From Lingula anatina (taxonomy: Eukaryota > Animalia > Brachiopoda), in assembly GCA_051362555.1 (NCBI GenBank), contig CM120640.1, positions 48,400,788 through 48,464,787 on the forward strand: a stretch of DNA of 64,000 bases, given 5' to 3'. Shown one piece after another: positions 22,901 to 64,000 of this stretch. The position numbers were made by a program, and so were the translations under genes. The stretch's first letter is position 1. Every line of letters begins with the position of its first letter. The notes under the pieces are model-generated. The model did no database searches, was not told where the DNA came from, and saw only the letters and a list, made by a program, of their open reading frames with translations.

Positions 22901-25900
22901 CAAGAGAGAAACTGGTTTTTCAATGGAACAAAGAAAAAAACACTTTCAACAGGTATATGTTGTAAAAAAAAAAAAAACACACACACACACACAAGGGTCA
23001 GAGAGAATCTAATTTGTTGAAAGTTATTTATATTTCTACATTAGCCTTTACACAAGTTTGAAAACTCATTTTCAATTATAAATACAACAGGAAACTTGGT
23101 TATCCATCATAATCACCTTAAAGCTATTCTTTCAGTATCAGGATAATATAAATATAAGTCAAATATGAATTGTTTTAGTAAGCAGAAATGCAGCAAATCA
23201 CAATCACAATCTAGCAAATCACAACCACAAACTGAAAGGATAAACTTAATTTCAGACTATAACCCCCTTAATTTAAAAACTCAATACAACATTTTCTTCA
23301 GCTAAACAGTTATAATAATACAATGTACAGCAAGGTGACATTTTCTTCAACCAAATGGGCCTGGCCAACCCCAACCACATCTAAACTTTTCTCACTTGTG
23401 CCTAACCAATCAAAATAATCAAGAGGTAGACAAGACAGGACTTGACAATCAAAAATGACAAATCAAACAAACAAAAAAATTCCTTGTTGACCATTTCACC
23501 ATCTTTCAAACACTGAGAAAGTAAAATATTATATCACCTTTCATCCCCCCTTTACCATGTGATTATTGATCCTTCCACATGGTTCTAACATCATATAACA
23601 AAGGCTGACTGAATATCAACTTACTTTTCCCTATCTGTTTAACCATATCTTTAGTGGCCTTCAAAAACATCACTTTCCAACTTCCATACAAATAACACCA
23701 TTACAATGTTATATTACATTCCCCAGCCCTTTTATTAAATGCTGCAGTAGCAATGATAAAGCATACCATATATTACATGAGACAAGATAAACCAGATTAG
23801 TCTCCAGTTTCCTAAGGGTGTAATTACAAAGATATTCAGTTTAAAACAATTTCCATCACCATTTCATTTGGTTTGGATTGATTATAGTTTAACCTAATGA
23901 GAGACTGAATACATCAGATATCATTAAATTATCAATAATAAGGATGATCTGTGGTTGAATTCTATTAATCCAGTAAGAGTTGAGCAGGTGGTCAATGGGC
24001 CTCTTATGATCTATATACTTCTGCTGTACCATGAATCCAGACCTCATTTATGGTTGAAATAAATATCATAATGCATAGAATATCACTTTAAGAGGGCATT
24101 ATTGTCTTCTTATTATTTTTCATTTAATATAATACAGTTTTATACGACATTTCTTTTATGATAAATTAAGTATGAGGTAAAACATCAATAAGACGTACAT
24201 AAGATGCAAACAAAATATTCAATTCTGATGAAAATTAGACTTAGAGGGTCAACAAAAGTAAATGTACCCAACAAAAATATTTTTTTTGCAATAAGTTTTG
24301 ATATGATAGGTTTCTGCTTCCATATGCATGTTACCATGCAATAAAGTGCTGATATATATAATACTAAAATATACATATGCATCAATGATATATAGTGCAC
24401 AACTTCTTTAAAAAATTGTACACCCTACTTTCAAGCTGGTCACTAAAATTAATCTGTGACATGCATGTTCATTATCAAAATGCGTGAGTTTACTTCATAA
24501 TGCAGAAAAGTGGTCAATAAGCTATACTTCTTGATATCAATGTCTAATGTCTATCTTTTCTTCAGGTAATATGGAAAAAGGAAGGCATATTACAGCCACT
24601 CACTGTGGGCACCTTCGTGTTCACTGATGATGAGCGTTTGTCCACAGCCTGTGAACTCAAGGGCCAGGACACCACATGTTCCCTCAAGATTAACAGGGTA
24701 TCTGTGGATGATGCCGGCATCTACTTCTGTGAAGTTTCAACAAATTTGGACGTTCATCTGAAATATCAAATACAACTTAATGTAAAAGGTATGAAAGTTG
24801 CTGTAAATATAAAGCAACAACTGGAAAAGGAATGATTTACACTGAGAAAAATCCTTTTGAGCTCAACCTTTATTTGTTTTCCATTATATTAAGATTTCTA
24901 ACACATTGATCCATTAGTAGTAAATATTCATGTAAAGAGGGTCAATCTTTTCCTGATAATTTCCCCAAATTCAATGACAGGTATAACACTCACAAGCATT
25001 TGCATTAAACATCAGGTATATATTTGTTATGTTGACTAAAGTAATCTCACCATGTATATCCTATATTTATTAGTTAACCATTATAGGTACTATTTTTATG
25101 TTAAGGTTTGTTCCTGTGACTGCCTTTTATTAAGTTTCAACTTTATGACATGCGCAGCATGCATGCTATAACTTCCAAATCCATTCAGTTTGACTCCATT
25201 CTTGATTGCATTTTTGCTAGGTTTTACTAAATATGGGCAAAACTAACAAGTGGCCAGTTTTGTCACATTGCTCATTTTGCTTTTTTTAAATTGTTAACCC
25301 ATTAAAGAGTTTGATTAACAGGAGCAGATGCTGGCCAATTAATTGCTTGCCGACTTTTTTCTCTGTAACATATATTCCTTTGTGATTGATATATGCCTTA
25401 TGAATCAGTTGTGTATGAATATAAAACCTTTTGTATTCTTACTTTGCTGAATTTGTTTGCATAATATGCAGTAGTTTGTATGAGTATTTTTCATCATAAT
25501 ATAAGTGCATTTTATTGGTTACTAGATATGACATATAACATGCATGAATTATGCCAAATTCATAATATTTGAATATCAAGGCTTTGAAATGTAATAAGCT
25601 TCAAGTTCTTGTTGCAATGTTGTCTTGTTTTCATGTGCAGTAATGAACTTAAATTAGGCTAGGATAGGCCTGACATGTCACTTTTATCTCTAACTATCGC
25701 ATGAGATGTTGTTGCATAATTAAGCTAATTACTAACAAACAGTCATGTTACTCTCTAGCTGTTCTCCTAGATACGCAATCTCTCAATATTTTCTAACAAC
25801 AAGGATACACTGCTCTTGCAGACATCATCTGGGCTCCTGTGTCATTTATAATTAGCAGATACAATGCAATTTGAACAATAAAACTATAACGGGGATGCTA

Positions 25901-28900: not shown

Positions 28901-31900
28901 GGTTTACAGGAATATAAACATATTTTACAACACATTTTTGTTCTTGCATGGGTAGTCACTGTCCTGCATGGCAACATTATTATTATTATTATCATTATCA
29001 TATAGATATCAAATACAGAGTACATGTATTTCCATGTTTTATGTGTCCATTTTGTTGCATGTGTGTAGTATCTGTGTGTCAGTAGAAAAATATATATATT
29101 AACTTTTTGTGGAATATAAAAAGCACAAAGCTTAAATATGAAATGAATATATCAATTTGAAGTTTGCCCCAAAAAATATGAATGCTAATAACTGTCTTCC
29201 TAATGATTGGAAGCTGTGCCATAAGCTATGAATCAATAGGTACGAGAGCATTTTATGCCAAGCATGATCAAACTGAGCATGAGACATATATTTAAAATAA
29301 AATTTGACGGCATATAATAGTGACCCAGCTAGGCTTCTGAATCTTTAAGAAGGCATGCATCAACCCATATTAGTTGTGTATATAAGGGAACAATTTGCAG
29401 TGAATACAAAGCATGTAAACATACCCTTCCCCTCATGATATGAGCTGGTATACCAATAAGTCAAGGCATGTGCAACATATAGCCTTTTACCATTATAAGG
29501 CTACATGATTGAGCCAGGATCAAAAACTTCTAAATTCTTCAATAGTTGTTTCTCTTTCCTGTTTGTTAAGTTTTTTCCTCAGTAGCCTTGGTGCCTTGAT
29601 CCCTTCCTTATCTCTTCACTTACTCTGAATGCTTGAGCTAAGCCAATTCTCAACTGAAATCACAGCAAATTGTGCTACTAACCCAGCATATAGAATAGTT
29701 TAAGCCTCCAAATCCATAAAATAATATACCATGATTGTGTAGTAAAAATGTAGTGATTGAAATACTGCATTATTCGTGGTGTTTTGTCTCTATATGTTCA
29801 GTGACAGTCCATCATGGCTTTTTGTTGTTTTAAGTTTATAAAGTAGTTAGAGGCTTCAATTTTTAATTTTTTTTACCAAATGAAATGGTAATATATATAA
29901 GTGAAAGCATAATAAGTAGGAAAGTTCAAAAAAGGGGTTCCACGCAAGACATAGCAGAATGGACTTTTTTTAGTCCAATGCATGTTGTGGCCTTAGCAGG
30001 CATTTTTCTTTTTCCAGTGGTCCTCTCTGGGACAGAATATGTAGAAAAAGGCAGCCGAATGAGACTGATTTGCAATGCTACTGGCACAGAAGAGCCTCCC
30101 ACTGGTATAGAATGGTTTAAGAAAGGCAAGCGCTTGCAGACCAATATGAAAAAAGGCATAGAAATCAAACAATATGTTTATATGAAAACACTGATAAGCA
30201 TATTAGCCATACATCAAACAGATATGGAAGATGCTGGGGACTACATCTGTAGGTCCAGTCATAGCAGCAAGGCCGTCAACAAAATCAGTGTGCATGTTTT
30301 AGATGGTGAGAGACGTTTTCTAAATAATAAAACACCCTTGTAATTTAAACAAAAATGGTACAGATGTACAAAACTCTGAGCAACGAAAACAAGAAATTGG
30401 AATCCTCAAAGAGATACGTAAAATCTCAAGGCCAGGCAAATCAAAATGCATTACAATCTGGGTGATTTCACCATTTCTTTTAAATATTTGCTGGAGGGAA
30501 AGGGTTCACGATTGCACATTTCTGCTCTTTATTTGGTAATTTTTTTGTGTGACTCAACACATTTGACATGAAAATTCACTCCTTTCACACATTTTTGATC
30601 TTAAAAGAAAACACTGAAATTTAATGAAATGTTATAGATGTGATATCATGTGTTATAAATTTCAATCTTCATTATCTTTAACATTTGCTTTTTTCTTTAT
30701 TTTCATGCTGTTTGCATGGGCAGTATCTACAACGAATGTTAAACGTGGTAAGCTCCCAGAATTTCTTACAGAGCTGGGTCTGGTTTTGTGTGTATTGCAG
30801 CACAAGAAAACCAGGTCCAATATCAGAATTAACAAAGATGATTTGTAGTCTAGTGTCATACATATTATTGCCTTAAAGAGACTAATTAAGCTGGATCCTA
30901 AGAGTATCTGAAACATATCCAAATTCAAGGAATCACTGAGACAAGTGGAACCTACAAAGTCAAAAAATGTATATCAATCACTTTACTTCAACTCTGCACC
31001 TTCTTCCTTCACCATATACCTATACGTGCTTATGCATATAATTCTGAAAGAGGCTCACTCATAGGATCCAGACTAATCGACACACTTATATACTTACTTA
31101 CAGGTACTAGTAGATGTATGCTTGCATTGCTTTAGCTTGGATCAGGTTGCTTGCATTTTTCTCCCTTAAGTAGTAGAAAATGCTGATGATCTTTCTCCTT
31201 CTTCTCTTTCTTTCTCCATCTCTCTTTACTCTTGAATCACTTCTGCATCTGTCATCAGTATTGTGCGATCGTATCTATGGCTTAAAAAAATTCAAATCAC
31301 ATATTATAAAACTGGCTGATTTTCTCAGGAAAGCTAACATTTTTGTCATTCTTTAACTTCATCTCAGCCAGTAATTTTTTATATAGATTGATATAACAGA
31401 AAAAAATTAAGTCTAACCACATTTCTAATAACTAGGTCCATTTGAATATGTTTGAAGCATTTAAAATTTCAGCAAAAAAGCTCTAAGATACCACATTAGG
31501 CACCTAGCTCTACTATAATTAGAATTTGAGTTTTCTGCTTTTATTAAATTTGGGATTTTCATCAGAAATAAAAACTGGTGAAAATACCATTTTGGTCCAT
31601 ACACCTGTTCAACGCTTCACTTCACAGTACACACCATGTCAGAAAAAAGGAAAAACAGCACTGTACATCACCAGTAACAACCTGCTCCATGTAGCTAATC
31701 ATAATCATCACATTTGTGGACGCTGTTCTTTCTGTCTTGCTTTCTATCATCAGAACCAGGAGCCCAGCCTTGTGATCAGACAAATGCTGATGGCACTTGC
31801 AGCACTGGCATTCACCTGCAACCCCCAAACAACCTTGGCACCTCCAGTGAGTATGGCAACAGTATTCTGAGAGAAAAAATAGGGAAAACTTTATTGACTA

Positions 31901-39203: not shown

Positions 39204-42200
39204 GCCCAGTGGAAGTAGCGTGGAAGACGTACTGAATAGAGTTTCTGCCCAAACGAAGCGTCTGGATAGTTTTCTCAGGTAGAATATATGTACAAAGTAG
39301 ATTGGAATAATTTATTTTGGGAAGTTTTTATTATTTGTAATTATATTTGAGATTTAAAATGAAAAATGAAAGGCGTGTGCTGAGATGGTCACGATATGTG
39401 AAAAAAATACTAGTATCTATTAGTATCAGTACTATAATTATGTGTATTATGTATTACAGTATGACCCCTGATTTGTAGATGAGATCGAACCACTCATAAC
39501 TACTTCTTGAAAATCAGTCATCATATTTATGTAAATTGTCTATAGGTGCCAAATTGGCAAATAGCAATCGGAAAAGAAAACGGGCCTTGAAGGCTTTTTT
39601 AATTAACTTGATTATATGGGTGAAGTCAAATATAAGATAATATTCATTTAGATTATTTGTAGAGAAATCAAAACAAAGTTTCTGCATATGCATAATGTCT
39701 CAGTGTTAACTGCTGTATTACTGTCTGACTGTAAATTTACTGCCACTGCTACCAATATTCATGAGTTCTAAAGGCAGTGACATGCTTTATTATACATTGT
39801 CATTTTTTGTTGTATATAGGCATTTGCTTACAGTAAAGATGAGTTTTTTTTGGTCAACAAGCGTTGCAGAGGTAATAATAGAATAGTTCTTGAGGGTTTA
39901 ATTATAACTTACGACTTTTTTTTCAGCATTCACAATGAAGTTGCTGATGAATTGCGCTCTTCCACCAAATTATTATATGACTACTCTAAATCTATTGAGA
40001 CTTGTAAAACCGGTAGTGAATCACTTCCAGAACTGATTATTGACAATTTTGATGATGAACAAGTTTGGCAGGAATTGGAACTTCACAATGATTCAGCAGT
40101 CTCAGATTTATTGTCATGTGTTGCCAAGTCATTGGCCAGTAAAAGCAACTTATCATTTGCCATTCATAAAAATGAAGAAACAAGTAATAAACGCAACATT
40201 GGGAAACCACCCTATCAAAACAGAATTAAGAAAAGCTTTCCTATTGATGAAGAAGTTTCTTCTGAAGAAAATGATGGGGACATTGAACTTGATCAGTTTC
40301 AATCACAATCACACAGTGATGACAGTGATGCAGACTTGAAGCATGTTTTAGAAAAAGCTGGTGCTAATGTATACAGTAGAGATGATAGTGAAAGTGAAGG
40401 TGATGTTATGGAATATGAACATGAAGAAGATGGTGAGCAAGAAGAAAGACAAGAAGATACGGACTCTGATCCAGAAATAACCTTCCGTACACAGCCAAAA
40501 TTAAAGAAAAGACAGCAACGTAATGACATTGGAAAAGCTAAAAGAATCAGGAAATCTGTAGTTGATGATAAATTCTTTAAACTGTCTGAGATGGAAGTAT
40601 TTTTGGAGCAAGAAGATGCCAGGGAAGAGAGAAAGAGAAGACAGGAATCTGGACAGGGGGACCAACAGGAGGAGGAGGAAAAGGAGGATGACATAGATTT
40701 ATTTGAAAACATTGAATCTGATGGAGAGGCGGTAAATTCACATGGATATTATAGATATATAAAAATGTCTCAGACTAACTAGTTCACTTTTTTACTACTG
40801 TTTTTCAATTAGTGATTTAAGTACGATGCCTTATGATTTTAATAATACTTCATTTATATACTTCAATAATACAGTTTGTATGTTTGCAACTTTTTTCTCA
40901 CACTCAGGCCTACCCAACTACCAGGCACCAAATGATCCCTAATTCACCGGTCGATCGGACCACACTTCCCCTTTTTCAAGGTGTGCGTCTGTACGCATTT
41001 CACAGTATCATACCCCGAACAAATTTTGAGTGGTGATGAAATACTTTCCAACCCTGCTAAGAATCATCACTATCACATTGCCCACTAGGCAAGCCCGTGT
41101 CGTGTCTGATACTTCAAAGCGCGTACTGACGCACACCTTGAAAATGGGTAGACTAGTGTGGTCCAATCTACCGGTGAATTCAAGATCATTCGGTGCGGAG
41201 TCTGGTAGTTGGGTAGGCCTGACACTTTATGGCCAATCCTTAAAGCTTTTTTTTATTATTTTAGAGCGAAGGGGATATTATGTATGCCGATTTCTTTGAT
41301 CAACCATCTAGCCAGGTGTCTAATAAACAGAACATCAGCATTGAGGAGGAGGATCAGATAGAGGAAGAAGAAGAGGATGTTGATAGTGGAGATTTAGACC
41401 AGTATGAAGTACTCTTTACCTAGTTACTAGTCCTTTTTTTCACCTATGCTCATTACTTTATCAGGGCTACTCCACTGAGGTGTAGATAAATTTACCAAAA
41501 AAAACATTTCTGATGAAAATTACATTTCAAAGGTAATAGTCCACATTTGTCATACTTATTTATTGACAATACATGTAATGCTCCCCCCCCCCTTTTCCAT
41601 AAAGATAACCTCGTCTATTTTAACACAAAATAAAACTTTTAATGCTGTTCATATCACTATCTCTTTTTTAAAAGGGATGATGAAAATGTTGAAGGCACTG
41701 ATGAAGAGAGAGAAATCCAAACAAGGGTTCAATCAGGCAGAGATTTGTTTGCTGCTAGTGATAGTAGTGAAGGTGAAGATATTGGTGATATATTTGGAGG
41801 AAAGAAAATACATGAAAAATCTTCCTTTGAGAAGAGGCAAGAAAAGGTAACATTTCTTGCAGTAAATTGCTTTTAATTTAAATCTTGAGATACCTAAGAT
41901 GATAGTATTTAAAGTTGTTAAGACAACATTTGTGCTCCTAAAAGGCTATAGACTGTAACTTTTCACTTTCTTAAATGTCTCAAACAATTCAGATTATGAT
42001 GTGATGTTTCTATCAAGTCTTAAAATACCATGTTTCATTACATTAATGTTCACTGCAACAGTATGATCAATTTACTTTGAAGCATTGTGTGTTTAAATTA
42101 TCCTACTCTAAATCATTTTTATTCTTTATCATGATAAGTAAATTACACAGATATTGTATTACCATTTTTTACAGTGTAAGTGTTTTGTTTAGAAATAGAT

Positions 42201-43906
42201 GTCATTTTTTTCAGTTGAAGGAAAGAATTTCTGAGTTAGAAGAAACTGCTCTGGCACAGAAACCTTGGCAGTTGACTGGAGAAACCACAGCAACTGCCAG
42301 ACCAGAAAACAGCTTGTTACAGGAAGATCTGGAGTTTGAACACACTACTAGGCTAGGTATTTAATTTATTCTTGTTGTTTGTGTGCTAAAAATCATTTTC
42401 TCTCAAAATTCTGTAATTGTTTTTCATCTTACTTTATCATAAGTAACTTCAAGTGTCACAACTTATTCCTAGCTATTAAATAGTTAAGCCGTTTTATCAA
42501 TATCTAGACAATAAAAAATTGTTCATTTACTATTCTGATAGGACATGTAATTTTCAATTATTTTATACGTTTTCCTGTTTAGCACACATTTTGTTAATTA
42601 CAGCTCCAGTCATAACGGAGGAAAAAACAGCCAGTTTAGAAAGTGTCATTAAACAAAGGATAAAAGATCAGGTGAGTGACAGCCAACAGAGCTTACCGGC
42701 TGCCAACTTAGATGTTCTTTATCTTGTATTTAATGAAAGATACTGTAGTGCATCATTCTGTTTTATCAGGGCACTTGGGAACTATGTAGCCAGTTCGCAA
42801 TTTCTTTGTCTTAAGTAATTTTAACCATATAACGAGTTATCAATTTTGTTATTGAACAAATGTCAAATTTAGAATGTTTTACCCATTGCTAAGTATTTAA
42901 ATGTAAGCAAATGTCATCAAACTAATATTCAACAAAAGTGAAGTTGTGAACTGTATTTAAAGAAGCATGTCAATTTTAGAATATTTTACCCATTGCTAAG
43001 TATTTAAATACATGTATATGTAAAAGTCATCAAACTGATATGCAATGGAAGTGAAATTTTCTAGTGTATTTAAAGAAGCATAAAATTACTTCAATTTTGG
43101 AAATGGTTAAATACTCATAAACATTGTGTTACATTTATGTATATTAATTATTTATCATTATCCTGGGTTGTTGTTTTTCCAGGCCTTTGATGATGTGGAG
43201 AGGAAAATCAAGCCTACAGAGGATGCATTCCAGTATAAAAAGAGGATAACACTTGATCAGGAAAAGAGTAAACAGAGTTTAGGAGAAATATATGAGCAGG
43301 AGTACTTAAAGCAAGTACAGGAGGTAGGTTGGGGGTTTTAGAAGAGCATGAGAGGGAAATGTGCAAGTTTGGTGCATTTTTCTATCATAATGTAGCGAAG
43401 AAGATCTTGGTAATGCACAGCAAATAAAACACAAGATTAAGTTGTTTAGTTTATAAATTTTATCTTTTTGGTCCAGGCGCTGTATTAAAATTACATAAGT
43501 TTAATTTTTGTGCAACAGCTTGATATTACTTTTTGGTGAATTTAGATTGCTTTGATTAAAGCAAATATAGTTTGTTGATTCCTCATGATGTGAAAAAATG
43601 TTTCTGCTCCTTTTTTCAGACAGAAGAAGATAAAACAGACCCTCAGCATGAAGACATTAAAAAAATGATGCAATCCTTATTTATCAAGTTAGATGCTCTT
43701 TCTAACTTTCATTATACACCCAAACCGGTAAGAATGTTAGACATTAGTGTTAAAAAAGAAGCAGCTGCTTTCTAGCTTTAAGCAAGATCCAGACATTAAA
43801 GGGACAACAACTATTCCTTTTGGTAAAAAAATGGATTTTTCTGTGGTAAAGAAAATTTTCCCATACTTGCCGGTAGTTAATGAATCTGTTCTGACAGTAA
43901 GTCCCC

Positions 43907-43951
<45 letters not shown>

Positions 43952-45677
43952 TAATCATCTGTCTTTTGTAATCATGGCCATCTATAGAGGTCATGTGGTC
44001 CAATTGGCAAGTGCAAATTCCAAAATAATTGGGATAACTATGATTTTGGTCGCTAAAATAGAATTTATTATATTTCTTTGCGTTGTTCATTATGTTTTTA
44101 CAGTGAAATATGGATCTCATACCACCACTTGTTGTGCCTTTAAGTCATAAGTTGTTTTATATATATATAATATGTATACATCATTCCTTAATATCTTTGT
44201 AAACAATAAATTGTCATTGTAAGTTGCATTGCAAGATGGTTTTAATTATAAAGTATAAAACTTAAGGTTAAAAAAGGGTTGAAATAATTACTAGTAGGTA
44301 AATTTTATGTCAATTTGTTACACTGCATTAGGCTGTCCCTGAAGTCAAGATTGTCAGTAATATGCCATCTATAGTAATGGAGGAAGTGGCCCCACTTAGT
44401 GCCAGCAGTGCTGCATTGTTGGCTCCAGAAGAGATACAGGTAAATAGCTTCTTAAACATATGTATGTTGGTAGTGTTTGAAACTGCAAAACTATAAGGAA
44501 AATACACTAATATTACATTTCTAAAAGTATTAAATTTGTATGTATTTGTTTTATGAAATAAATATTACAATCTTCAAATATAAATCGGTTCTTTTTAAAA
44601 ATAAATTTTGTCTGAAAGTTTTCGCATACTTTAGAAACTTTGATTTTTGTTTAAACTCACAGGAGAAACCCAAGGGGGATGTAAAAGGGAAATCGGAAGC
44701 AACAGACACTGATAGAAAGCATGAAAGGAGATTAAAAAAGAAAGTTAAACGGTTGAAAGAGAAGGAAAAAAAGAAGAGACAAAAACTTATAGAGAAGTTA
44801 AAACCAGGCTTAAGCAACAAGCACAGTAAAAAGAAAGCACTGAAAGAGTTGGAAAAACAAGAAAAGAGCTCCAAAAACCTAACAGTTATACAGGTAAGGC
44901 AGTTTTATGGAAATTAAAATGTTTTAATACACCAAATAATTAAAATAAAATATAAATATTAAGACGTCAAAAATTTTTATAATACATCACTTCTTAAAGA
45001 TGCATACAAAGTCAATTTTTTGTCACAAAAACCAACCAAATGCCAGCATATAGATTCAAGTAGTATAACTAAGAGTTTTACCAAAAGGCACTGTTTAATT
45101 TTACCCGAAAATGATGTCAGAACGATTTTTCTGCTGGCATTCTAAGCTGTATGTCAATGGGACAGGAAAGTAGGTCACGAAAGTAGGTTAAATTTACAAC
45201 CAAAAATTTAAAGAAAGGAGCAGTCTAAAGGTCTTTTATGGCTGATCGAGTGATCTATTCACTTTATCCCTTGGCATGTCGAATTTATTTGAGTCATATA
45301 AGAATCTAGTAGAAGTGGTTTAAATGTGTTACTGGGAATCCATGCTCCACCGATGCTCGGTTCGTATGTACCTTTAATCAAACATTTTTGGGAACACAAG
45401 AATGTATCACAGCATATGATAGCCATTGCACAAGTCTTTTTTGCAATTGTTTGCATAAATATGTGAAATTTATACATCAACCATACTTATTTTATGTCTA
45501 TACTACTTCTATTTCTACCTTTAGGAGGATAAATCAAGAAAGGCTGGACTGACATCATCTAAGGCCTTCTTCACACAACTCCAGGAAGAAGCTAAGACCC
45601 AAATACGCATCCACAAGACTTCTAGGAATGAGATGATAAAAGCAAAAGCAAATACTGCAGCTAAACTTATACTCTAA
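39196..45677 (+). CDS. MPHOSPH10: U3 snoRNP protein MPP10 (SSU processome), 11 coding exons
   Basis: Exons 39196-39278, 39927-40731, 41265-41401, 41675-41846, 42215-42356, 42604-42671, 43183-43323, 43620-43727, 44332-44439, 44663-44893, 45525-45677, all GT-AG and in phase. Mpp10 motifs: [76 protein letters not shown]. Confidence 0.96.
40905..41221. mobile_element. MITE in MPP10 intron 2
   Basis: Perfect 20-bp TIR CAGGCCTACCCAACTACCAG / CTGGTAGTTGGGTAGGCCTG, with imperfect arms extending about 100 bp. Flanked on both sides by ACACT (40900-40904, 41222-41226). Confidence 0.9.
42860..43079. repeat. Two-copy tandem duplication (unit of about 110 bp) in MPP10 intron 6
   Basis: ATGTCAA.TTTAGAAT.TTTTACCCATTGCTAAGTATTTAAAT...GTCATCAAACT.ATAT...TGTATTTAAAGAAGC occurs twice, head to tail. 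Confidence 0.9.
43800..44139. mobile_element. TTAA-target MITE (Kolobok/T2-MITE-like) in MPP10 intron 8
   Basis: TTAA|AGGGACAAC ... GTTGTGCCT|TTAA. The interior is similar to the copy at 6183-6517 (AATTTTCCCATACTT..GTTAATGAATC; GTGAAATAT.GATCTCATAC). Confidence 0.8.
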
Positions 45678-46326
45678 ATCAATATTCAGCTCAGAGCACA
45701 TTCTGTAACATTATTTTGATTTTACAGATTGGGAGGGGAGTGAATTAGAGTAGAGCTAGTGACAAAATTTAGGATGTATAAAGTTATTGTGTTGTGATTC
45801 ATTTGCAACTTTTCTATGACATTTCTATGCCAAAATAAAATAAGCGTAGAAAAAATATGTTCTGCTATTGTTTTAATATAAATGGCATGTTTCCAATGTA
45901 GCAACCAACAAACAAAATTATTACTATTATGATAGAAACCGTTTTACAATGTTCTAGCAAAAAGTTAAATTGATATGTTCAAGTAAACATTCTGGAAAGT
46001 GGTAATTCTGTTTTTTTAACATGCATTCTAAACAAATGTTTTAACTATATTCACTTTTCTCTTTGGAGAAATTTAAATCTGAATTCTGTTTTTATATATA
46101 AATTTGCATTTTAAACATCACTGAAAATTATAAATATTGTATATATTTGCCACTATTTTACACTTCTAAAAGAAAAAAATGAAGATTGGCCCCACCTATA
46201 ATACAGAGCTGCTGAAAAAGAAACCTGTCGAATATCTCCAAGTTTGGGGTACACAAAACAAACCTAGGTCTTTACTATAATTATAAACATTTTTTTCAAA
46301 TAGGTTATGAACCTATTGCAGATTAA

Positions 46327-46541
46327 GACCCCATTCCCAGAGATTAGATCGATCTACTTTAGATCGGCCCAACTCCCTGGGGGTTCACGCTAAATAGCTG
46401 TCAGCCGAGCGGGCACGAAAGTTAATTACCCCCTTACAGCTTGTAGTAGGCAGGACGGACATTTAAGTCGGATTATCTGACAGTAATCTAGTGAGACTCC
46501 CTGCGGGGATAGATCGATTTAAAAGCTCTGGGAATACGCCC
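46327..46541. mobile_element. Tourist/PIF-Harbinger-like MITE between the convergent 3' ends of MPP10 and the TIR gene
   Basis: TAA|GACCCCATTCCCAGAG..TAGATCGATCTA ... TAGATCGATTTA..CTCTGGGAATACGCCC|TAA; 3-bp TAA TSD. Confidence 0.75.
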
Positions 46542-46610
46542 TAAGTCTATTTGATGCAATAAAATACTCAAAAAGCTTTATTTTAATCCTGCCTCCCATT
46601 TCAAGGATTG

Positions 46611-48550
46611 TCATAATGTGGTGCAGGTACTGATAAGATCCTCTTTAAGATGGACAAGTTTGCTCTCATTTTCTGTACAGTCGGCATCAACATCAGCCAT
46701 TTCCATACCATCTCCACTTTCTCTTGCTTGCAACTTGTCTTCTCCAAGTGGAACATCACTACTTTGATACAATTTTGCATCTTCTTCAGTGTTTTCTAAT
46801 TGTTCTCCCTCAACCATTTCATCTGCTCTGTTACAGAAAAAATAAAGTTATAGGACAACAAGTTCACAACAGTAAGTTGTTTACAAATTAAATGTAAGAA
46901 GCAATCTGAAATGGTTAAAGGAACTATTCTCAATGAAATGGAATACAGGATCACACAATGAAATTGAGATTACGACATTTCCACCTTACCCCAAGGTCTT
47001 CAGGTGTGAACATAAATGCGACAATTTCATACAGCTGGTATTTTGACATGTGCCTTGCAACAGTGCTTCTAATAAGCACCCTGTAATAAATAATTTTTCA
47101 CTGATATTACATGATAACTTACCCAGCATCTTGTAAATAATTATTTGAAGTGTTGCAGTCCTCTTTCTGGCCTACCACTGGACTTAAAGTGTAAATGTTC
47201 TTATCTCCAACATGAATGTTGGAAGAGTTTACAATGTTAATATTGTAAACTTTAGGTGGCTGTGAGTGATGAGCAGCAGCAGCACCTGCTCCAATTTCTA
47301 ATGGCTGACCATTCTGTTTACTGAACTCTTCAACATCTGCAACCCCTGCATTTCTATCCCTTCTCATCTCCTCTTGTTTTTGCTTTTTCCGTTTCTGTAT
47401 CCATTGATGCTTCTTATTCTCCTGGTCCACTTCTCGCCTTATCTTCTTGTCTCTACATGCATCACATGTAAATAATGATTTGACTTGTCTTTTGTAGTAT
47501 GGGTCATCTGGCACGAGACCTTTGAGACTACTCAAGCCATATGGAATGTACTGAAAATCATCTTTAGGTTTGGTGAAGACTGGAATAAAGCCCCAGCGTT
47601 TTGTTTCATCTTTGAGAGATTTTGTCAGGGCTTCATTTACGTGTGTTTCAAATATCTTGTCTGTTTGCTCTTCTTCACAGTTAGCAGTCATGTAGAACAG
47701 CATGTAAGTGCTTCGCTTAATTGCTTCCTCAGCACACTGCCACTCTGCTTGTATCCATGGGAACTCATTGTGGTCATCATATGTACATCCTCTTAATTTG
47801 AAGCCATTACTTTCTGCCAAAGTTTGCAGTTCCTCATGATATGCAAGTGCCTTTTCTCTATCCTTCTGACAGAAAAACAATACATAATCGTATTGTGGTG
47901 CTTTTAATTGTGCAGGGATTTCATATTCCTGTACAGATATGTCATCGATGTATGTTTGCTGTTCAACAGCATCTTGACTAGTGTCTCTAGCAGTATGCAT
48001 TTCTCCACTAGCTCTGTGGTCTTGCTCCTGATCTAAATTTAAATATATGAACATGAAATAATAAGACTGGCAACCAATAAAATGTTTTGAAATAGATGTA
48101 CTGTAAATGATATAACGATAATATTAGTTTTCACCTCGATTTCAGGCTCTACTGGTATACTTGATTCACATGAAGTTTATAAATAAAGTTACCAAAGTGT
48201 ATGGATATACTTCTCTCAGGTAAAATATTACTTATAGAGTCTGATGAATGGTACTAGTACGATAAACGGTGAGGTTTGGAAAAAATATATATATATACGC
48301 TTGACTAAAGACATATTTCTGACAATGCATTGTTTAAAATTAAAACTGTAATTCAACCAAGGACCAGTAACCATGTACAGTACTAGACACACCTTCAAGG
48401 AAAAATTACTTATAGTACATTTTTCGACTAGTGACCGTAAAACTATGAGTAATCTTTGAATGCATTGATCGTTTTCATTAAAATTTACCCCCGATAAAAT
48501 ATGCAGCAAATATTCTTACCGATCCGACAAAATTGTTCTTCAAGACTCAT
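46611..48550 (-). CDS. TIR-domain adaptor, TICAM/TRIF-like, with downstream coiled-coil and RHIM-like motif (385 aa, 3 exons)
   Basis: Exons 48550-48520 (MSLEEQFCRI), 48032-47123 and 46827-46611; phases 1 and 2 match. TIR at about 47892-47470: YDYVLFF..DREKA..GCTYDD..EWQCAEEAIKRSTYMLFYMTAN..VNEALTKSL..FIPVF..PYGLSSLKGL..YKRQVKSLF. RHIM-like segment NIVNSSNIHVGDKNIY at about 47240-47190. Confidence 0.85.
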
Positions 48551-48837: not shown

Positions 48838-50719
48838 GGGGGCGTCTCGATAGTCCGAAGGTTCATTGGTCCGAAGGTTCATTGGTCCGAAAAGTGGTAA
48901 CATTTTCGTCGATTTTTTAATCAAGGGTTCATTGGTCCGTTACAGTGACGTCATATTTGCTCCGTAACACTAGTCCCGCGGCCATGCTGGAGGGAATGAA
49001 CGACGGGGAATAGTAGCGGTAATATAGGTGAACCAAATAAAATAAAATAAACTTCATATCGCGATCAAGTACACCAAAGGGAAAAGGATATATACAAGCT
49101 GAAGCTTCAGGTGCTCAGCAGGATCGACCAATATGAACTCAAGACAGTCTAAAAACATGAAATCCTACCAAATGCTACTTATCCAACATCGTGTTGTCAG
49201 AAGATAGTTCAGTTATCTTGTACTTCATTTTTCTTGTTCATTGGGTAGTAACAGTTATAGTTTGAGAGAGTTTAATGTGTAATCATACGTTTAACCTTAC
49301 ATAGAAGCAACTTTTTTCATAAAGGATAGATATAAGGAGAAATTTGAGCTGATCATCAGGATAAACCCTTGTGGACTCAAGGAAGAATGTATGCAGGATT
49401 GTCATAAAGTATGACATGAAATATTGCTGTCAGTTATGACTTATCTCTACATCGTGAAGCTGTCAGAAATTATTTCAGCATTCTTGTACTTCATATTGGT
49501 TCATTAGAAAGTACATGTAACAAGACTGTTGTTTGAGAGAGTTTTATTATTCACCATGAATGCAACCATTCATATAAACAACATGTTAGGATTTTATTAT
49601 TATTCAGTCATTCACAGAAGCAAGGCATTTTTCACACTTATGTATTTATGATGTCCAAAAATAACAATAATTCAGTTCATGAATTGATCTTCATTTCTGT
49701 TTTTTTTTTTTTTTTTTATAATTTACTTGCACCCAATCAGTGTGGCTTGGTGGGAAATGCCAGTCAATTTCCTAAATGTAAATTAATAGAAAGATGACAA
49801 TAGTGATTTTTATTCGTATTGTAACTTACAAGTTTACAGTTGAAAGGAGCAGAATTTAACATTTTTACAGAGGAACGTGCAAATTCATTTCATGAGGTTA
49901 TATGTCAATTACACCTGAGGTAGAATTTACTTGCAAAATAAAATTACTCTTATCACTACACCAAATCGAAAATTAAGCCACTAACTTCCAAATGCACCTC
50001 ATACAGGTAATTGATTTAATTGGCCCAGCTCAGCTGTGTACAGTACAAATATAGCCTTGACACTAATTGGCAATAATGCTAACCAGGTATGAAAGAGGTA
50101 GGTGACAGCCGATAAAATCTAGAGAGCACCGTAACTGATAACAAATTACACCCAAGGCAATAGGTGAGTCTTCATTATAAAAGTCGAAACCCTGCCTGGG
50201 TATTTCCACACTTTTTAACAAATTAACACACTCTCCACCCAAACTTTTTGGGCACTACTTTAAATATTTATGTAGCGTACGTGCGCCCCAAATGTACACA
50301 CCTAGGTCTTTGATTTTCTACTGTTTTTTCTTTTATGGTAAAATCTGCACAGCTGGCTCTCCATTCTTTGCTATAAAATTCAAAGCCACCTCGCCGTCTC
50401 TCCTCCGTTTATGGTTTTAGTTCCTTCACCATGGATTGTTACCACTGCAGGCAGCCTGAACGCTTGTAAAGTTAGTTATCTTCTCTCGATCAAATAACCC
50501 GCAGTAATTCATCATTTTGCTCGGTTGAATATCAAAGAAAATACAGAAAACGAAAACTGAACTACAGGCATGGCTTGTTCATGCGCAGCAGACGATTCCG
50601 GTCTCCCTCCAGAATGGCTGCCGTCTGTTTTGATGACGCAGGCTCTAATGGGTCAATAGTGAACATTCGGACCAATGAATCTTCGGACTGTTGAACCTTC
50701 GGACTATCGCTACGGCCCC
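48838..50719. mobile_element. Non-autonomous DNA transposon (about 1.9 kb) with GG termini, 8-bp TSD and 16-bp subterminal repeats (Merlin- or Mutator/foldback-like; superfamily uncertain)
   Basis: TSD GAATCTGG at 48830-48837 and 50720-50727. Left TIR GGGGGCGTCTCGATAGTCCGAAGGTTCA versus right-end reverse complement GGGGCCGTAGCGATAGTCCGAAGGTTCA. GAAGGTTCATTGGTCC-type units occur at both ends. No transposase ORF. Confidence 0.88.
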
Positions 50720-51381: not shown

Positions 51382-54300
51382 TCATGCTGCTAAAGGATGT
51401 GCACTGTTATATTGTTGAATATCAACTTCCTTGTGAATTCTGCCAGTCTTTGGCTTTTTGCGGCCTTTGCATTTATCCTGATAGTTTTTAGCCTCCTTGT
51501 GAAGTCTTTCCACAAAATCTGGCAAGCCTAAAACATAAAACAGACTAGTAAGTAAAACTTTTGCAAAATAAAACCTGTAAAACTTTGCCACAAAACGTTG
51601 GTAGATGTTTGCCTCACTCTGCAATTTCAAAACATTACACTTGCATTACTAAGTACAGAATAATAATAATATTATACAACATGTGCTGCAATGATGGCAA
51701 TAGAGGACTCTCCCTACCTGAACGGGCTATCCATTTGTATGCAACTGAAGGAATTGGGGCTTGTGGGTCATCATGGTAAGTCATCAAATAATCTAATCCA
51801 TTCTGAAATTTGATGCAAATCACACTTCTTATAATATATTTAACATACTGACAAATTACCAAGAAAAACTTATTTATTTTTAGATTAATGTTGGACTTGC
51901 ATTTAAATGGTTTTCATTTTCAAATTGGTACTTTTATACATTTTGGAAAATCTTTTTTGGTTTCAAAACTTATTATCTAGCACAAATGAAAGTTAGTGCT
52001 TTCCTGTCTGTATCTGCAATAACACGCTTTTCAAAATTAAAATCCTGGTAAAAAATTTTAACCTACTTGATCAAACTCTGTGTGGGGCTTGATGACCATA
52101 ACAGAACTGTATGGTTTGACCCTGATATAGTCCTTAGTCTCTGGACATTTCTCATGGTCAGTGGATCTGGACACCAGTACTATCACTTTCTCCTCTTCAA
52201 AGACCTGTGACAAAATATAAGCAGGGTATATGATTATTTATCACTATTATCTTACTTCACATACTGATAAATGAGAACATGCTATTAACACCAGTATTCT
52301 ACATTTAAAAATCTAATATTCAGTTATTGAAAAAAAAAAGGTTATCACACTTAGAGGCTCATAATGACAAGAATAAGTAAAGCATTTTGTTCCCCAAGGA
52401 CGTTTTCAAAAAAAAAATCCTTTCTAGTGTTTTTTAATGAATTTATATGGTGAAGTTGATTTTGCACTGTTGAAAATACTATCAAAATCTGTTTTCATTT
52501 AGTATTTTTCTCCAGTATTTTTTCTCCAATACCTTTCATGGCAATGTTAAATTGACAGTTCATGAGATCATTATGTTTAAGGTATGCTGCATGTGTTTAT
52601 AAAATTTTAAGTCTACATATCTTTCAGAGCTACTTATCTTTCCCAATTCAGACAACATAACTATGGACATATGTTTTCATACAGTACATATTTTGCTCCA
52701 GTATTTTCTCCTATGCCTTTTAGTATTGTGAGCCATTTGATCATTCTAAGTTAATTACCTTAAATCTACGTCTATACACATATTCCCTTGCATACATTGG
52801 GTACTAGAAAAGAAAAAAATACAAACTCATTACAGCATTCTACAAGAGCCAGCATATATGTGACAAGTTTTTAATACAGACATATTTAAGGTGTTTCAAT
52901 TGGAACCAAACATAAAAAATTCGCATAAAAGTCTAAATTTTGCACCCACCGGATATCGAGTGACCCAATGCACAATTTCATTATTAGACTCTTTATCTTC
53001 TTCCACCTTTTCTAGATTTATCACCATTTTGTCCCATGTCTTTCGAAACTCCAGATCAATCTAAAAATAATAATAATGAATTCACAATTGCTTTCTTGAC
53101 AGTTTCTTAGGCAAGAAACCAAAATGTTTGGTCTCTATGCTTTTGCATAAAGTTTAAAAAATAATTAAGAATTTTTTATTTTTAATATTTTCCAACTAAC
53201 TATAATATCCCACTAACCTGAACATCAAGGAAAGCAGTAGCAGGAATATCATAGAATCTACCAAATACTGAAAAACAAAACAAAAAAAAAATTGAATAAC
53301 ATTCTATGCCCACTATAAAAATATGCCAGCTAAAAGAAAAAAATAGTGAAAAGCTTGACCTGAGTGATCTAGAAAAATATAATTTGGATAAAGCACCAAA
53401 ACTATACAATTAATTCTCTCAATCTAAACGTAATTCATGTTATTTCAAGAGCCTTTTTTGAAAATGATTTTTAAGAATAACTTTCAAATGTCACTGATCA
53501 AAGTTTATCCAGTCATAAAAATATCAACAAAAGTAATTCATCTGTTATGTTAGAAAACAGTAACATGAAATTCTAAAAAAAAAACATGCACACCTTTGTA
53601 TTCATACAAATGGCTATCAGCCATTTGTTTTCTCCATATTTTGAATGTATCTTTGTCAATAACACACTCCCAATCATCCATGTAATGCGAGTCATTCCCA
53701 TTTCCATTGCCTGTGTTATTTGTCTCTGAAATTTTATCTTTGGAAGAGCTTTTCTGTTTCCTGGTGTATTCATTCAGATTTTCAATGTGGTGCATATCTG
53801 CAACACAGCTAGAAAGAAAATAATAAAGTTACAGTTCCAGCTGAATAATATTAAATTTAAAAACAGTGTTAAGCAACAGTATGCCACCTCCCATATATTT
53901 GCAAACACAACAAAACAACCAAAAACTAAAAAAAAAAGAAAAGAAAAAGAAGCAAACATATGCTAAATTGACAGCTCATGTTAAGGTACGCTGAGCAGGT
54001 TTTAAATTTTTTAAGTCTAGATATAAATCCTTCAAAGCTACTTGTCTTTCCAAATTCAGGCTTTATAAAATCCCTCAAATAAAAGTACCTGATAGGAAGA
54101 CGGTATTTTTCAATGATTAGACAGCATTTAAGAACTAAAGTATTAAATTCAAAATGGAATAAAACATCAAACCCAAGTGCAATAAGCGGTCAAGAAATTT
54201 GTGACAGGTGGGGAGAGGATTCATTTTCCCCCCAAGGTAAATTAGTTTTGATTAACCTTGGCCAGGGAACCCCATATAGAGTACCTTTAACAAAACAAGT

Positions 54301-61300: not shown

Positions 61301-63979
61301 GATGGTGTTGACTTTGACAGTGCCCTCCTATGGTGCAGCCATAACTAATGGTGGGGTCATGTATACTATCTCACAGACCAACAAGATGATACACAAGATG
61401 ATCCTGCCTGAAGAACGTCCACCGGTATGTAGCTTGGATGACACAATAAATTTCCTCAGTGAAGGTTTTGACTAATTTATTTTATGTACTGTGTTATTAA
61501 GAATGCATATATACCATGGTGTTTTTTTATGATAAATGTGTTTTCTAAGGCTTTGATTTTTTTTCTGTCAGAACTAACTTCAGATATTTTCATATGTCAT
61601 CTTTTGTAAGAATCAACATTTTTTTTTTGGTGGATGTTGATTATTAAACTATAGAATTATGAAGACTTCATATTATTGTAATAACAGAGAGATGAGGCTG
61701 TCTTGAGTCATGTCGGGGAATATCCAGGCCACCAGTTGCCAGGAGGAAGGCTCATTATGTCACCACACAACAAATGGGTGGCATCTTATGGCCCTGATGG
61801 AAAAATTTACATAAGAACAGTCGGAGATATGGTAAGTGCAACTGCAAGCATTCTTGTTGAATTAACAGTGTTTATTGCTTACATGTCTCATTTGCTCCTT
61901 TCTTATAAAATGAATTATTGTGGTCAAGCATATCCAACATTTCAAATTTTTATCCTTTTAAACTTATGCAGCATCATTTTAGGTAAAACATTTATGAATT
62001 ATTATTCTGATTAATTATAATGTTTGTTTTTTTTTTTATCTTCTGTAGATTCAAAGAAAAATGATGTCCATCATCTGTGAATCCTGGAGCATTTATGGCA
62101 ATACTTTGCAACATCATGGTTTTCACTGTAAACATTTGGTTTTCTTTTATATATGTATATGTGCTTTTTGATTTCAGGACCACCCTCTGCAGCTGTCCCC
62201 CCATGACTACCGGCATGGTGGAGTGAGGCACATGACTTTCTCTGGAGACAGTCAGATGTTGTATACTGTGGGATACGATGGAATTATGGCTTGTTATAAG
62301 TGGAGGTAAGGGAGATAGAATGTTGGCATTTTGATAAGTGTAAAAAGGTCAGGCGAAGTGTGCTTGGAAGTCTGTGATACAAAAATTTGCAATGGTTTGA
62401 AATTAATATGTTAGCTTTTCAGAATATAAGCAATTAAGAATGAAGCAATTTACAATGATAATTTGTATTCAGCAATTCCATTAATCTATTAAGCAAATTT
62501 GAAACTGCATCAAGAGTCCAGACACTTTCATGTCTACCAACATTTGGTGCTTATGTTGTAAATATCATCAGGTATGTGAAAACCCCAACTGCTCAACTAC
62601 TCTCCTTTCTGTCAACTGCATTGCTTATGTATAATGATAAAATTTCTTTTAGGCTAACCCAAAGTGGTCAGGCCAAAGCAAAATCAGCCATTGAATCAGC
62701 CAGGGCTATCAGAACCAATAATATGCAGACCCAGCAGACTGAGGATGCTATGCTGCAGAGTATGAAGGAGTGGTCACCATCCAGTGAGTCAAGGCCTGTC
62801 ACCACTGCTCCTAAGGAGGAAACAGTAAGTAACAAACCATTTTCAGTACAAATAGCACATAGATATTTGCCTTTAGAAATTGAGCATGAACTACTAAAAA
62901 GGCTTTCTGTTTGAATTGTTTTATAGTTTGTCTGGTAAATTTGTGTGTTATACATGTATGTCTCTATTATTTTGTTTTTCTTACTATGTGACTTTTTTGT
63001 AGTTACTTGCTTCTGTTTTGTTTTGTTTATTCATTTTTTCTCCTAAACTGGATTTTTTATTTACCGCAAGTCATTGAGAATAATTTGACTAAATTAATCA
63101 CCAGTTTACCAGATTTAGCTTTTTTTTTTTGACAATTTCTGAGGTAGGATGGGCATCTGATTGTAATACCTGCTATAATTGATCTTCAGGAACAACTGGA
63201 AAAGGAGCAGTCAACTGAGGAAGTCTATACCACCCCTACCCCAGTTCCAGGTCATGATAGCACCTGGTTACAGGCACAAGAGCTTATGGTAAGCTGTTAG
63301 GCATCTTTTAGAATGTAGTTATATATATAGCAGGGAATATAGTTATACATAGCAGGGAAATCTGAGTAAAGCAAGCCAAAAATAAGAAAGAGGATTTTGT
63401 TGATTTGATTTAGTATGAGAGATCATAATACAAGGTATTAGTGTCATGGATATCTTAATTTTAATTTTCTTATTTTTATATATGAAAGTAAAAGTAGAAA
63501 AAAATACATCTTGTTCATATCAGAATATTGTTCATCATCTGATTAATATATCACTTCAAGTTTAACATTTTTGGCTTATATATTTCTGCCTTATGAAGAC
63601 TTTTTATATTTTATTTATAGTCAATCAAAGAGGAAGACAAGGAATATGCAGAGGTCAAAAAGCAACTGAGGCTGGAAATCAAAGACATGAGAAAAACAGT
63701 GAGTTTATTATACAGTATCATTGTGAAAATGGATTATCCTTAGACATAATACTGTTATATTGCTAGGAGATCAGCATGAACTACTAATTTTTTAAAAGGT
63801 TACCAAAATTTTTGGTAATAAACATTAATTATTACCTTTTTTCATAAATCTAGATTCAAAAGATGATGCAAGAGAATGAGGGTCTTCCAGATACTGAGAA
63901 ACTTGGTAGACATGAGTTTGATCTTGATATTGATGAGCAGATCCATCTGCAACAGGAGGCAGATAATGAAGTAGCAAGG
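55301..63979 (+). CDS. CFAP43: Cilia- and flagella-associated protein 43 (WD40 repeats followed by coiled coil), 5' part; continues beyond the window
   Basis: Exons 55301-55329, 56038-56288, 56580-56673, 56913-57080, 57353(or 57314)-57605, 57809-57938, 58200-58285, 58722-58853, 59078-59191, 59588-59668, 59878-60026, 60325-60428, 60793-60942, 61243-61424, 61688-61831, 62178-62305, 62653-62824, 63190-63288, 63621-63698, 63854-63979. Motifs: SWAKGY, YLATVSGLPEFELAVW, HCWTPVGDLYVGCEGG, GHQL..SPHNKWVAS, ENEGLPDTEKLGRHEFDLD. Confidence 0.9.
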
Positions 63980-64000
63980 GTAAGCAGTTACATTGACTGT

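Follow-up and report, generated by a model that had tools for sequence, protein, structure and literature searches.

Does a TICAM-type adaptor, with a TIR domain, a helix and a RHIM in that order, exist outside the chordates? The question is raised by a minus-strand gene in a stretch of 64,000 nucleotides of Lingula anatina DNA (the window), which an initial annotation, made from the letters alone, had read as coding for a TRIF-like adaptor. According to published reviews and surveys, non-chordates have no TRIF homologue and TRIF and TRAM first appear in amphioxus (PMC6043800), the lancelets are the basal occurrence of TRIF/TRAM-type adaptors (PMC9440496) and a TRIF-like TIR group is restricted to chordates (PMC7075850); a TRIF-type adaptor is described as absent from Aplysia (PMC9334734), Saccostrea (PMC4892480) and placozoans (PMC6321704). 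Molluscs are stated to possess downstream components, perhaps with an unidentified adaptor (PMC4892480).

The gene and the features of its product that are referred to below are as follows (window positions).

48520..48550, minus strand: coding exon 1, with the start codon and residues 1–10; 4 of 4 RNA runs have reads across junction 48520/48032
47123..48032, minus strand: coding exon 2, with the acidic N-terminal stretch, the entire TIR, the helix and the RHIM-like motif
46611..46827, minus strand: coding exon 3, with the acidic tail and the stop codon; pLDDT mostly <50
47449..47898, minus strand: TICAM-type TIR domain, ~ residues 56–205, from profile and fold searches
47755..47760, minus strand: BB-loop Pro102-Trp103, from alignment columns
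47641..47643, minus strand: His141, from alignment columns, in the column of the glutamate of enzymatic TIRs
47314..47448, minus strand: long charged helix extending the last TIR helix, ~ residues 206–250 (DSSP helix 201–250)
47188..47247, minus strand: RHIM-like motif, residues 273–292, with the core IHVG (residues 283–286) at 47217–47206

Among the enumerated combinations of GT/AG splice sites, this arrangement of three exons on the minus strand was the sole one to read openly from M to stop, over 385 residues. Its product is identical to the database protein P0001, the uncharacterized LOC106172349 of the brachiopod Lingula anatina, so that the guess of a lophotrochozoan was correct. In raw RNA reads from the same species, both introns (48033–48519 and 46828–47122, with GT..AG ends) are skipped in all four runs, by 5, 9, 2 and 3 spliced reads per run at one junction and 5, 2, 4 and 4 at the other; the reads span all three exons, and two stranded libraries are consistent with a minus-strand transcript. 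The protein begins MSLEE, has about 50 residues ahead of the TIR, and contains both the helix quoted in the initial annotation and PKVYNINIVNSSNIHVGDKNIYTL. The spliced model, the RNA and the database identity thus establish that the 385-residue protein with its TIR, charged helix and RHIM-like segment is real.

MPP10 exons (U3 snoRNP; 39820–45677, plus strand) face the gene tail to tail, and between the two is a short, MITE-like repeat (46320–46548) with imperfect 26-nt inverted ends and a very high, diverse RNA depth. A segment of ~ 1.9 kb at 48838–50719, flanked by 54-nt inverted repeats (87% complementary), is likely a non-autonomous DNA transposon; it lies immediately upstream of the 5′ end of the TIR gene, and its left end is covered by abundant RNA reads. 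Elsewhere in the window, where the scan covered 128 of the 145 exon-like ORFs (one swapped in), there are two immunoglobulin-domain exons (24548–24832 and 29867–30343, both plus strand), probably belonging to one cell-surface Ig protein, a START-domain exon (52061–52237, minus strand), a weak WD40 and a strong CFAP43 coiled-coil exon (62172–62306 and 63854–64000, respectively, both plus strand) and a weak GCM-motif match (20320–20463, minus strand; E 0.003, under the cut-off). The Ig-domain, START-domain and CFAP43 exons suggest that the neighbours form no immune cluster.

A search of 1.84 billion representative proteins found 127 proteins at E ≤ 0.001 including the query, that is, 126 relatives; word-index homologue searches were insensitive, giving 1 and 3 matches. 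Thirty of the 126 were looked up. Ten have an organism name and, the frog apart, are annelid, brachiopod, bivalve or gastropod proteins (Owenia, Lingula LOC106170920, Argopecten, Mactra, Potamilus, Haliotis, Patella, Batillaria, Bradybaena and the frog Hyla), and there may be non-vertebrate deuterostomes among the 20 that do not. The Hyla TICAM1-like protein was retrieved by the query alone, at E 7.4e-5 among the 1.84 billion proteins, and is the only relative close to vertebrate TRIF (41% over 140 residues), the remaining long alignments being at ≤ 27%. LOC106172349 is therefore a real, expressed member of a widespread spiralian family of TICAM-type TIR and RHIM-like proteins, with at least one paralogue in Lingula itself, LOC106170920 (P0008), which has 1387 residues and a canonical IQIG core. 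TIR_2 is touched at E ≤ 0.01 by 54 of the 127 proteins and its cut-off is passed by only six of them in Pfam, the other 121 falling below the threshold, which explains how the family could escape notice. In two relatives, P0106 and P0099, the TIR is followed by a Death domain in one and a trypsin-like domain in the other, and neither has a RHIM-like motif that passes; judged from sequence, effectors may have been swapped on one and the same TIR type. The Mactra protein P0047 carries the source name TMED7, yet Pfam detects TIR_2 alone, and the name probably derives from the vertebrate TMED7-TICAM2 read-through.

The closeness of this TIR to those of TRAM and TRIF appears at the level of families. 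The TIR_2 and RHIM profiles that the initial annotation had proposed as a check gave no confirmation, as neither these nor Pfam TIR matches LOC106172349 at E ≤ 10. Against the PDB, the query sequence alone ranked TRIF (E 0.37) under a chance match, and the Argopecten (scallop) relative alone had no match. Since the first profile (A1) included a frog TICAM1, the profile and fold searches were redone without the frog row. The resulting profile of 81 relatives matched TRAM at E 1.7e-17 and TRIF at 2.4e-10, as against 1.6e-5 for TLR2, 3.8e-4 for MAL and 5.5e-4 for MyD88 in the PDB, which contains few invertebrate TIR families. A narrower profile of 26 rows (five named spiralians and their tree neighbours) matched TRAM at 1e-6 and no further TIR, TRIF included, at E ≤ 0.01. 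In the reverse direction, a profile built from 19 TICAM1 sequences of vertebrates found 17 PDB sequences at E ≤ 10, among them TRIF, TRAM and RIPK RHIM pieces, and no chain of MyD88, MAL, SARM1 or a TLR. When a profile from the same TICAM1 alignment was run on the family TIR stretches, with scores scaled to the same database size, 95 of 126 were matched at E ≤ 10 and 79 at E ≤ 1e-3; the query scored 7.9e-8 and the Owenia TIR only 0.25. With the frog row, the family profile aligned the TIR, helix and RHIM of human TRIF as one match, and the frog-free match to human TRIF covers the same range.

In the AlphaFold model the TIR fold, at ~ residues 56–205, is confident and a single continuous helix covers residues 201–250 (pLDDT > 90); confidence is low at both protein ends and over the RHIM-like segment. 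In the fold search of 48,161 chains with the frog-free model, TRAM (Z 17.5, rmsd 2.4, 153 residues aligned) and TRIF (Z 17.4, rmsd 2.9, 154 aligned) stood above MAL (12.6), MyD88 (12.4) and SARM1 (10.4), and the ranking agrees with that of the first model, made from the alignment with the frog. An Atlas search ranked TICAM2 first (0.90, 186 shared features). Thus, by profiles in both directions and by two fold searches, the TIR is nearer to TRIF and TRAM than to the other solved TIRs, as the initial annotation had supposed, at a TIR identity to the two of 16–21%. What that annotation called a coiled coil is shown only as the long charged helix predicted by the model; the segment after the TIR is charged and mostly proline-free in most relatives (84 and 90 of 108).

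Of the residues said to be shared with TRIF, two prove to be general to the family. In the 116 non-vertebrate rows that cover ≥ 120 profile positions, Pro161 is invariant and the position of Thr126 is T or S throughout; in contrast, the T of G-x-T occurs in 9 of 116, and where E-x-x-C has its C the commonest residue is H. The column of His141, which we take to be that of the catalytic (NADase) glutamate of enzymatic TIRs, has Gln in five TICAM1 sequences of vertebrates, and none of the 116 rows has Glu there; with this glutamate absent from the alignment, an enzymatic TIR was rejected. The BB loop reads Pro-Trp-Ile in the query against x-Pro-Gly in vertebrate TICAM1. Trp103 shares a column with the BB-loop proline of the latter, and by register Pro102-Trp103 would match Pro116-Cys117 of TRAM (PMC11745336). 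The loop is poorly aligned, so that the counts at the vertebrate BB-loop columns (Pro in 2 and Gly in 2 of 116 relatives) are to be read beside a Gly one column further along in 50 of 116.

The motifs particular to vertebrate TRIF and TRAM were also searched for. The TRIF N-terminal domain (PF17798) was found in none of the 127 proteins, the frog TICAM1-like protein included, and LOC106172349 has no pLxIS motif, no TRAF6-binding motif and no N-myristoylation motif (MGxxxS). Across the family, pLxIS (7 of 126; shuffle 9.4) and TRAF6 motifs (41 of 126; shuffle 42.8) are not in excess, and a myristoylation motif is present in 3 of 126 relatives (shuffle expectation 0.8). The frog TICAM1-like proteins P0105 and P0147–P0163 (355–463 residues) likewise have no TRIF-NTD in the Pfam data. 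We therefore rejected TRIF proper, as the N-terminal domain, pLxIS and TRAF6 motifs are missing, and TRAM proper, as the myristoylation motif is missing and a RHIM-like tail is present in place of a TIR-only build.

Is the tail segment a RHIM? By the definition of PF12721, which asks for a core (I/V)Q(I/L/V)G or a score at the Pfam cut-off, the query with its IHVG core falls outside; the IQIG RHIM of P0008 itself scores 19.8 bits against a cut-off of 20. The segment is RHIM-like in its alternating hydrophobic strand, its turn, its core ending in Gly followed by x-x-Asn, its disordered context and its conservation. A motif matrix built on 14 canonical-core relatives, with the query and vertebrates excluded, gave the query 19.9 bits, a score that none of 2000 tail shuffles reached (maximum 12.3), and also recognised the RHIMs of two vertebrate TRIFs, with 32.9 and 18.4 bits. 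An HMM version of the test was weaker (6.4 bits, matched by 5 of 5000 shuffles). Tails were examined in 115 of 128 proteins, four vertebrate tree rows (label x) being excluded. In an iterated leave-one-out test, the motif passed in 56 of the 112 non-vertebrate relatives whose tails have ≥ 25 residues (54 of them above the highest shuffle) and in 50 of the 70 whose tails have ≥ 150; many of the 56 without it are short or probably truncated. The variant core that the initial annotation had put forward, and the conservation of the motif, are upheld by these scores. The second core position of the 59 passing motifs is Gln in 24, Met in 9, Ala in 6, His in 4, Asn in 4, Thr in 4 and another residue in 8, with Met in place of Gln in Argopecten and Batillaria. 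RHIM-like motifs of the insect IMD pathway may tolerate His at this position. No alternative letter occurs over 47204–47257 in four of four further RNA runs, and the His is therefore not an assembly error. Variation in the RNA reads, with one of 13 variable places falling in the motif's 60 of 208 bases, is too thin for a claim of selection. A Pfam match to EAD10 over the motif (E 0.001, under the cut-off) was dismissed as a similar short strand. An Atlas search with residues 262–300 gave no usable match, and a four-copy complex prediction for residues 264–299 scored 0.11 (mark 0.32), too low to inform.

A tree was calculated from 50 TIR stretches, namely 44 family rows chosen by name or clade and six vertebrate TICAM1 sequences. 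The vertebrate TICAM1 sequences share a long branch of length 1.79, supported at 100/100, and the tree does not settle where it attaches. The molluscs come out together at 93/81, which narrowly misses being starred, and among them three gastropods are separate from the bivalves; the query joins Owenia and LOC106170920 at a weak 71/84. Constraining the query to vertebrate TICAM1 was neither rejected nor supported (p-AU 0.20). As the tree holds no outgroup, TRAM or amphioxus sequence, orthology is what we infer from the comparisons as a whole. The initial annotation had named as contrary outcomes a TIR robustly outside the TICAMs, a core region neither conserved nor amyloid-forming, and a deuterostome genome; none of these was found, the phylogenetic one being judged by reciprocal similarity and fold, without outgroups.

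The reading that we prefer, at a probability of roughly 60%, is that LOC106172349 is a protostome co-orthologue of the ancestral TICAM, a non-enzymatic adaptor that would act through its candidate RHIM on RIPK1 and so on NF-kB. By its sequence features it is probably a pre-duplication, amphioxus-type TICAM-like protein, neither TRIF nor TRAM proper and co-orthologous to both. With TRIF it shares the fold, the order of TIR, helix and RHIM, the beta-D Pro, the beta-C Thr/Ser and the lack of a catalytic Glu; it differs from TRIF in its missing motifs, the apparently replaced Pro-Gly of the BB loop, the IHVG core and an identity of only 20%. With TRAM, its best profile and Atlas match, it shares a short acidic N-terminus and, by register, apparently a Pro one before the BB-loop apex, whereas MGxxxS is absent from the query and the RHIM-like motif from TRAM. 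The nearest likeness is to amphioxus bbtTICAM, which by the description in a review (PMC6043800) likewise joins a TICAM-type TIR to a RHIM and activates NF-kB via RIP through its own RHIM, with no interferon output. From that description, bbtTICAM is set apart as a chordate protein, and LOC106172349 as a protostome one with a His core.

The TIRs of TRIF and TRAM form two-stranded filaments, which are proposed to concentrate RHIMs and so to recruit RIPK1 and RIPK3 (PMC11745336), and RIPK1-like proteins with a conserved RHIM are described in Lingula and the zebra mussel, the latter requiring its RHIM for NF-kB (PMC12119088). Together with amphioxus TICAM, these lead us to read LOC106172349 as a likely scaffold adaptor, which by analogy may work as amphioxus TICAM does. 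On activation, a receptor with a TIR domain, probably one of the Toll-like receptors, would seed a filament in which the adaptor TIRs line up head to tail; the long helix would keep the tails clear of the filament; and the clustered RHIM-like motifs could then form a cross-beta stack with the RIPK1 RHIM of Lingula, from which NF-kB activation, and possibly cell death, would follow. The output would be without the IRF3 arm of vertebrate TRIF. We infer each of these parts: orthology, filament, receptor, partner, amyloid and output.

It is unlikely, yet conceivable, that LOC106172349 is instead a bridging or damping member of the family, which would co-assemble with LOC106170920 or with receptors while its His core weakens or caps RHIM stacking. 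The idea arises since some single-residue changes in the tetrad abolish NF-kB activation by RIPK3 and spare cell death, and since the RHIM of human TRIF is dispensable for NF-kB (both PMC12119088), so that such a role could exist beside a paralogue with a canonical core. LOC106170920 has such a core and the higher score against vertebrate TICAM1 (45.2 against 34.9 bits), and may be a better choice for the role of main adaptor; the TRAF6 and pLxIS motifs are missing from the query, and inhibitory TIR adaptors in amphioxus target TICAM and RIP1b (PMC6043800). Against this, the family has many cores without Gln, the query's motif agrees well outside the core, and its distance from TIR to core, 78 residues, matches the 75 of frog TICAM1.

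Somewhat less probable again is that the protein, while a TICAM-family adaptor, acts below a TIR or SEFIR protein other than a TLR (cytosolic TIR sensors, TIR-STING, and IL-1R-like and IL-17R-like receptors were considered) or mainly drives cell death. The departure of the BB loop from the vertebrate form and the missing myristoylation motif would suit this, no receptor is pinpointed by the data, and the Death and trypsin-like domains behind the TIR, in one relative each, indicate that outputs vary. The characterised TICAMs described in PMC6043800 and PMC11745336, however, all act below TLRs, and nothing among the genes nearby points to another sensor. Least probable of the three is a separate invertebrate TIR lineage, the nearest cousin of TICAM or convergent on it, that gained its RHIM-like motif independently: the low identity to TRAM and TRIF, the long TICAM1 branch with its p-AU of 0.20 and the mobility of RHIMs among invertebrate immune proteins (PMC4262963) would allow it, whereas the reciprocal profiles, the gap of ~ 5 Z units to other TIRs, the order of TIR, extended helix and RHIM common to TRIF and the query, and the coherent molluscan group with gastropods apart from bivalves all speak against it.

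Several observations count against novelty. A weak TRAM match in Mytilus has been noted and cnidarian TRIF/TRAM cited (PMC3308963), a review gives TRAM and TICAM2 as adaptors of scallops in a figure legend (PMC12521104), several relatives have received the automatic name TIR domain-containing protein, and RHIM proteins in general are already known from invertebrates (PMC4262963). The family may also be among the ecTIR-DC and orphan invertebrate TIR proteins, which are cytosolic and proposed as alternative adaptors (Gerdol et al. 2017, 2018, via PMC6321704), and so be catalogued already in the Gerdol surveys. A full-text search, with the Gerdol bivalve-TIR and Lingula-immunity surveys outside its scope, found no description of a protostome TICAM with a RHIM.

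Returning to the preferred reading of LOC106172349 as a TICAM co-orthologue, we hold it an even chance that a TICAM-RIPK1 RHIM axis is older than the protostome–deuterostome split, and that overlooked spiralian TICAMs with a predicted RHIM amyloid and a relaxed core (Gln, Met, Ala, His, Asn or Thr) are the missing MyD88-independent adaptor of molluscs, annelids and brachiopods. The family offers a concrete candidate for the adaptor that molluscs are thought to have, with genes in scallop, clam, mussel, abalone, limpet, snails, Owenia and Lingula, and its natural core variants provide a test of which residues are needed for RHIM stacking. If the orthology is true, MyD88-independent signalling from TIR to RHIM would date to the bilaterian ancestor, and the pathway would be far older than the chordates that are usually credited with TRIF/TRAM adaptors.
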